From: a phage
DNA length: 814 bases
Reading direction: 5' to 3' (one strand)
Sequence record: KC755108.1
The notes beneath the pieces were generated by a model. The model searched no databases and was not told the origin of the DNA. It worked only from the letters and a program-made list of their open reading frames with translations. This document shows positions 1-814 of this stretch, piece by piece; the first letter of the stretch is position 1, and every line of letters starts with the position of its first letter. A program made the translations under genes and the position numbers.

Positions 1-25
1 TATATTGTTTAATCTTCTTTATCAT
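1..25 (-). other. Window-start segment where the gp23 translation diverges (probable 1-nt deletion near 23-25, and about 13 nt at 1-13 not recognisable as gp23)
   Basis: The core frame reads ...ALLFQM IKKIKQY. gp23 as I recall it continues LLFQ-IDKEAVEIARQ. The coding strand cag atg ata aag aag matches cag atT gat aaa gaa g (Q I D K E) if one T is restored, but the remaining ...attaaacaatata gives D-stop in that frame and does not resemble the expected continuation. Confidence 0.4.
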
Positions 26-727
26 CTGGAACAGTAAAGCTTTGAAGCTTTCACCAGCCCAACGAGCACCACGGATATCAATCGGGTCCTGGAAGTCAAA
101 CACACCAGCTTTAGCGCCAACGGTGTTGGTCATACCAGATTTACCAACCTGTGCGGAGTAGTTAATCCAATCGATAACTTCGCGGTTGATTTCCAGCATA
201 ATTTCGGTAGCCAGAATACCACTCAATTCGGCATCAGCATCCATACCGTGAACAGCGCGGAGGTCCTGTGCCAGTTCGATGGAGTAGCTTGCTTTCAGCT
301 GACGGGATTTAGCTTCGATAACTTGTTTGTCGATGCGGAAGCCCATTTCGTTCCACGGGTTATCAGAGGAACCGTTAAAACCTTCTTGCAGTTCGGCGAT
401 GGAGGTAGCCATACCTTCAGCGATTTCTGCCAGCTGACCAGCTTCGAGCAGTTTGGTAACTTCAGCGTCAAGTTTAGCAGCATCAGTAGCACCAGCATCA
501 ACGGTTACAGCTTCAACAGCCTGGTAGTGTGCGGAACCGGTTGCTTCGAAGAAGTGAGAATAAATTTTACCAACTTCCAGAACTTTGCTTGCAGCCAGTG
601 CTTCAAAAGTCTGAGCAGCGCCCTGACCAGAGAACATAGCGTTCGGAGCATACATCGGATGGAAAGCTTCTTTAGCACCAGCAGCGACAGGGTCTTTACC
701 GTATACTGCACGCAGTGCAAATACCTG
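2..727 (-). CDS. 23: Major capsid protein, T4-type (gp23 family), internal fragment; open at the window start (no stop codon in window), 5' side interrupted by a frame break at about 727-729
   Basis: Hand translation of the minus strand in the frame whose codons occupy + positions 3k+2..3k+4 gives no stop from 727 down to 2. Read N to C it starts QVFALRAVYGKDPVAAGAKEAFHPMYAPNAMFSGQGAAQTFEALAASKVLEVGKIYSHFFEATGSAHYQAVEAVTVDAGATDAAKLDAEVTKLLEAGQLAEIAEGMATSIAELQEGFNGSSDNPWNEMGFRIDKQVIEAKSRQLKASYSIELAQDLRAVHGMDADAELSGILATEIMLEINREVIDWINYSAQVGKSGMTNTVGAKAGVFDFQDPIDIRGARWAGESFKALLFQM... Long blocks match T4 gp23 as I recall it from memory (not a database search). Codon usage is that of a highly expressed gene (GCT, GGT, CGT, CTG, AAA, GAA preferred). 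Confidence 0.92.
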
Positions 728-729
728 GG
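727..729 (-). other. Apparent single-nucleotide insertion (extra G in a GGG run on +; extra C on the coding strand) breaking the gp23 reading frame
   Basis: The coding strand reads ccg act ggc C cag gta ttt. PTG is in one frame and QVF in the next, with one surplus base between them. Removing one base from the run restores a continuous ...NNPTGQVFALRA... matching gp23. Confidence 0.7.
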
Positions 730-806
730 CCAGTCGGGTTGTTCAGAGGCTGTACGCCACAAATATCAAACGCAATCAGATGCGGGATAGCACGCCGCAC
801 AACCCC
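729..806 (-). CDS. 23: 5'-proximal segment of the same gp23-family capsid gene, in a different reading frame from the core (frame shifted by one nt at about 727-729)
   Basis: Minus-strand codons occupying + positions 3k..3k+2 translate, N to C from 806 down to 729, as GVVRRAIPHLIAFDICGVQPLNNPTG. This matches the gp23 region immediately upstream of QVFALRAVYGKDP (T4, as I recall: MVRRAIPNLIAFDICGVQPMNSPTG). In the core frame the same bases read through to TGA at 743-745. An in-frame TAG at 807-809 ends this segment on its upstream side. Confidence 0.8.
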
Positions 807-809
807 CTA
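803..809 (-). other. Second apparent single-nucleotide insertion with an in-frame TAG (807-809) in the upstream gp23 segment
   Basis: The coding strand reads tg tta tag ggg gtt gtg cgg cgt gct. Deleting the A at +808 gives gtt atg ggg gtt gtg (VMGVV; T4 has VMGMV as I recall). Deleting one G from the 5-nt G run (+803..807) gives gtt ata ggg gtt gtg (VIGVV). Either way one extra base is present. Confidence 0.55.
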
Positions 810-814
810 TAACA

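Follow-up and report, generated by a model that had tools for sequence, protein, structure and literature searches.

An apparent frame break in a T4-type capsid gene fragment, very probably introduced by sequencing or assembly

The frame break that interrupts the capsid gene in the window analysed here, by which we mean the whole 814-base stretch of phage DNA, is very probably a base-calling or assembly error and not a biological feature. Judging from the pattern of changes along the window, the source phage almost certainly possesses an intact gp23 gene with GG where the window carries an extra G at positions 727-729. The indel is present in the window sequence and unique to it, and all of the differences unique to this sequence are located at its ends; we infer that these differences arose during sequencing or assembly. 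The frame break is best read together with the state of both window ends. In what follows, a state of the window is called private when, scored position by position, it is common to none of 22 distinct relatives, a set comprising those with at least 89% identity. The relevant features are:

14 to 813, minus strand: internal fragment of gp23, the T4-type major capsid protein gene, identified by megablast, Pfam and alignment to T4.
727 to 729, minus strand: homopolymer one base longer than in the relatives, which on the plus strand have GG where the window has GGG (CC and CCC on the gene strand), according to the alignments.
743 to 745, minus strand: TGA triplet in the frame of the downstream "core", located upstream of the break; the intact gene reads CCT CTG AAC (P L N) here.
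696 to 698, minus strand: TAA, the first stop in the shifted frame; the open reading frame at 696 to 800 on the minus strand ends here, its translation finishing in ...NNPTGPGICTACSIR before the stop.
24 to 25, minus strand: second frame break, where a homopolymer of two bases has lost one (AA to A on the plus strand; CAGATTGAT to CAGATGAT on the gene strand).
795 to 814, minus strand: degraded terminus with an insertion at 808 and private substitutions at 795, 798, 801, 803, 804 and 814, according to the pairwise alignment to phage 212.
1 to 13, no strand assigned: unalignable tail of 13 bases, TATATTGTTTAAT; the megablast alignments end at query position 801 (14 on the plus strand), and the other alignments agree.

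The minus strand of the window codes for the T4-type major capsid protein, and the plus strand contains no long open reading frame that resembles any known protein. The gp23 product is the essential shell protein of T4-type phages. The fragment corresponds approximately to residues 97-361 of the 521-residue T4 protein and includes neither the start codon nor the natural stop. A megablast search of the window against 50,697 phage genomes returned 987 matching records; coverage of the window reaches at least 80% in 934 phage records. The top match is Escherichia phage P896 of the genus Gaprivervirus, which is 97.9% identical across window positions 14-813 in a region annotated as major capsid protein. 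The nearest relatives possess an intact gp23 gene of 1,560 bases, which in P896 is adjoined by the scaffold gene (gp22) upstream and the vertex gene (gp24) downstream; the window itself does not extend past gp23. The repaired translation, obtained from the window sequence minus the extra base, matches the Pfam family Gp23 (PF07068) with E=1.3e-60 and 206.3 bits against a cut-off of 24.4, spanning profile positions 13-227 of 376. Its alignment to residues 100-356 of the solved T4 gp23 (chain 6uzc_a) is gap-free (E=5.8e-144). These three lines of evidence bear out the identification of the gene as gp23 that a sequence-only reading of the window had proposed, and both the profile match and the collinear T4 alignment place the fragment within the Gp23 family. 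An uninterrupted reading frame, as would be expected of a family member, is not found in the window, where the frame breaks at 727-729 and again at 24/25; both breaks are attributed to sequence error and not to a property of the gene.

At the first of these sites the gene strand of the window reads ACT GGC CCA GGT ATT, whereas the relatives read ACT GGC CAG GTA TTT, the difference being one extra C in the CC run. Relative to T4 gp23, the frame changes between the counterparts of Gly122 and Gln123, and the homopolymer that causes it sits 86 bases from one window end. Translation in the gene direction yields ...RRAIPHLIAFDICGVQPLNNPTG followed by GPGICTACSIR and a stop in one frame, and QVFALRAVYGKDP... 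past the break in the other, in agreement with the earlier observation that conserved gp23 sequence continues in different frames on either side. The proposal of a single inserted base in a short G/C homopolymer likewise holds, as the extra base is missing in all six aligned relatives and in 22 of the 22 distinct relatives, which carry GG where the window carries GGG. A comparison with the closest gp23 sequences had been suggested as the way to tell GG from GGG. When a 79-base query centred on the break was used, 899 phage records matched and none of them did so at 100% identity; in the best five of the 899 (phages 212, SP18 and RZ, two of which are also present as RefSeq duplicates), 78 of 79 bases are identical and the sole difference is a one-base gap. 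In 57 of 71 fetched gp23 loci the peptide across the break, DICGVQPxxxPTGQ[VI]F[AS]L, is of constant length; the other 14 did not match the strict pattern. The TAA at 696-698 lies ten codons downstream of the inserted base, and if the insertion were real, the protein would terminate there.

The sequence-only reading had also called attention to the TGA at 743-745. This triplet does lie in the core frame, as stated, but it does not follow the break, since in the gene direction it is found five codons upstream. All six aligned intact relatives have the surrounding stretch, CCTCTGAAC, unchanged except for a synonymous AAT in JS98. The TGA is not a product of the indel, because the aligned intact relatives carry the same out-of-frame triplet. 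It has no functional meaning, and the weight placed on it was misplaced, given its out-of-frame position in every aligned intact relative and its location upstream of the break.

Searches for the frameshifted form returned no match to the frameshifted string in viral contigs and none in metagenome contigs, whereas the unshifted string was found in three viral contigs, those of phages VR26, VR25 and VR20. An exact protein look-up of the two products that gene calling would predict for the window (218 and 34 residues) found neither on record. A single match to the frameshifted sequence was obtained among genome contigs and was set aside: the degenerate 27-mer CCNACNGGCCCAGGTATTTGCNCTGCG is matched exactly at positions 139-165 of JAEUQD010000215.1, a metagenome-assembled genome contig of Bryobacterales that is GC-rich and has flanks unrelated to gp23. 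The expected number of chance matches to this 27-mer is about 0.004, a rough figure that takes 24 specified bases, approximately 1.2e12 positions and equal base frequencies. Given its sequence context the match is a coincidence, though an unlikely one. An integrated remnant in E. coli was considered as well, and the fragment was unmatched in complete E. coli genomes.

The break at 727-729 is not the only defect of the window. The account given by the sequence-only reading stands as far as the structure of this break is concerned, but it overlooked the most informative context, namely the second break near position 24 and the degraded state of the termini. The deletion at 24/25 converts ...LLFQIDKEAAEIA... 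to ...LLFQMIKKIKQY, and the T that is lost here is present in 22 of 22 relatives. At the opposite end, the states of the terminus at 795-814 are common to none of the 22 relatives, and in four of the substitutions the gene strand acquires G (the plus strand C); this suggests that the base calling was systematically biased, and speaks against random mutation. The tail at positions 1-13 consists either of junk base calls or of a short piece of adapter or otherwise unrelated sequence, and is too short to be recognised as vector, adapter or junk; the junction string that joins this tail to gp23 had no match in viral contigs. Against every close relative, blastn places three gaps. The three one-base indels (24/25, 729 and 808) are each located at most 86 bases from an end, and two of them are in short homopolymers.

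Private states occur only at plus-strand positions 1-25 and 729-814, and none is found in the 701 bases from 26 to 726. Approximately 20 private events thus fall within 113 terminal bases against none within the 701 of the interior (Fisher p ~1.5e-18); when the test is limited to the two frame-breaking indels, p=0.019. One frame is open across the whole interior, and the interior protein is 97-98% identical to intact gp23 proteins. Across the interior there are 9 differences from P896 and 10 each from phages 212 and PSD2001. These differences are ordinary polymorphisms, because each state is common to 5-21 other relatives.

Between positions 92 and 716 the interior is a mosaic. Where it departs from P896 it resembles phages 212 and PSD2001, at 716, 704, 659, 629, 598, 589 and 365-367, and where it departs from 212 it resembles P896, at 613, 539-422 and 92. 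This mosaic reflects either natural recombination within Gaprivervirus or the merging of co-occurring strains into a consensus or chimera. Neither metagenome nor viral contigs contained a match to a 77-base interior stretch crossing a junction between P896-like and 212-like segments.

A sequencing or assembly error is favoured over a decaying gene because the private indels and miscalls are confined to the ends and the interior is free of them. In an inactivated or decaying gene, the private changes would not all be confined to 25 bases at one end and 86 at the other; this distribution points to error. The marks of such an error can be seen in the window: a homopolymer indel that is missing in all relatives, and private errors that cluster at the termini around a clean interior. 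On this account the window behaves as a single-pass read would, or a contig with just one or two reads underlying its ends. Its interior of about 700 bases is accurate, and its termini contain miscounts of homopolymer length (727-729, 24/25 and 808), miscalls at 795-804 and the tail at 1-13.

A biological origin of the extra base would take the form of a real and very recent frameshift, leaving a defective gp23 that is truncated after approximately residue 122 and extended by ten aberrant residues, and that persists in a sub-population complemented by co-infecting wild-type phage or as a non-viable DNA remnant. We consider this improbable. The insertion is present in the sequence as given and leads to the premature TAA at 696-698, a very recent mutation would also be expected to be private to the window, and the 65 bases past the indel (730-794) are error-free, so that the indel is not embedded in continuous junk. 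A real frameshift would nevertheless leave unexplained the frameshift at 24/25, the indel at 808, the miscalls at 795-804 and the tail at 1-13, all of which are private and terminal. It has no counterpart among the 899 phage records or in the viral and metagenome contigs, it would affect a shell protein that is known to be essential, and the interior frame is open without any private change in 701 bases and shows no sign of decay. A pseudogene or decaying remnant, in which lesions should be spread along the gene, was rejected on the same stretch, whose 701 bases contain no private difference and no stop. Of the two explanations offered by the sequence-only reading, the homopolymer sequencing or assembly error is accordingly the one strongly favoured, and that of a dead gene or remnant falls, given that the private changes are end-confined and the interior is clean. 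Were the extra base real, one could speculate on a gp23 allele truncated near residue 122 and carried by a cheater or defective-interfering genome within a mixed Gaprivervirus population, which would use the capsid protein of co-infecting wild-type phage; this appears more doubtful still. Such a defective capsid allele in a phage population would be of modest interest, and no evidence supports it.

The break could also be functional, if a full-length gp23 were still made by programmed recoding, either through a +1 ribosomal shift at GGC-C-CAG or through polymerase slippage on CCC. Conserved coding sequence does carry on in the +1 frame, and gene 10 of phage T7 offers a known case of frameshifting in a capsid gene. 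Yet the shifted arrangement is found in none of the relatives, and this lack of conservation in effect refutes recoding. The sequence ACU GGC CCA GGU does not permit +1 re-pairing of the tRNAs (GGC to GCC, CCA to CAG), and neither a stop nor a rare codon adjoins it. Folding of the 87 bases downstream is no stronger than in shuffled controls (z=+0.87; 157 shuffles of 200 do at least as well), and the deletion at 24/25 would demand a second, compensating event. A three-base run is in addition far too short for transcriptional slippage. Among the titles and abstract openings retrieved from the literature, none was found on gp23 frameshifting. We regard recoding as having a negligible chance of being correct. 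A phase-variable tract was likewise considered and rejected, as the run comprises three bases in the window and two in every relative and is neither long nor variable among them. A chimeric or engineered fragment, in which a cloned or amplified piece of gp23 is joined to vector or adapter sequence and the break stems from PCR or cloning, is very unlikely, though less so than recoding; it too is an artefact reading. The terminal bases 1-13 are indeed unmatched to gp23, and the P896-like and 212-like mosaic of the interior could in principle represent a PCR or assembly chimera of co-occurring strains. However, a 13-base tail is too short for identification, viral contigs contained no match to the junction string, every mosaic state is common to several relatives, mosaicism among T4-type phages is common in nature, and a polymerase error would not account for defects that are concentrated at both ends.

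The case is foremost one of quality control: the apparent frameshift in gp23 should not be annotated as a pseudogene, as the sign of a defective phage or as a recoding site.

Several known systems share features with the window. At the sites of T7 gene 10A/10B, of the lambda G/GT tail chaperone and of bacterial prfB, which uses a +1 shift, coding likewise continues in another frame, and those of T7 and lambda are in phage structural genes. These sites are, however, conserved, slippery with tRNA re-pairing and usually accompanied by a stimulatory element, none of which is found at 727-729. Phase-variable homopolymer tracts, which act as contingency loci through slipped-strand mispairing, also change frame via homopolymer length, but they typically comprise at least 7 bases and vary in length among strains, whereas the change here is from 2 to 3 and the GG is invariant in the relatives examined. 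With the gp23 genes of Gaprivervirus (Escherichia phages P896, 212 and PSD2001 and Shigella phage SP18) the window shares 97.9-95.8% nucleotide identity over 799 bases; it is unlike them in its three one-base indels and degraded ends, and in an interior that mixes P896-like and 212-like segments. The closest likeness is to the homopolymer and read-end errors of single-pass reads or low-coverage contig ends, which show the same gain and loss of bases in short homopolymers, the same terminal clustering and the same accurate interior, and which likewise make an essential and otherwise perfectly conserved gene look broken; with this pattern the window shows no difference, the assignment being made by pattern alone.
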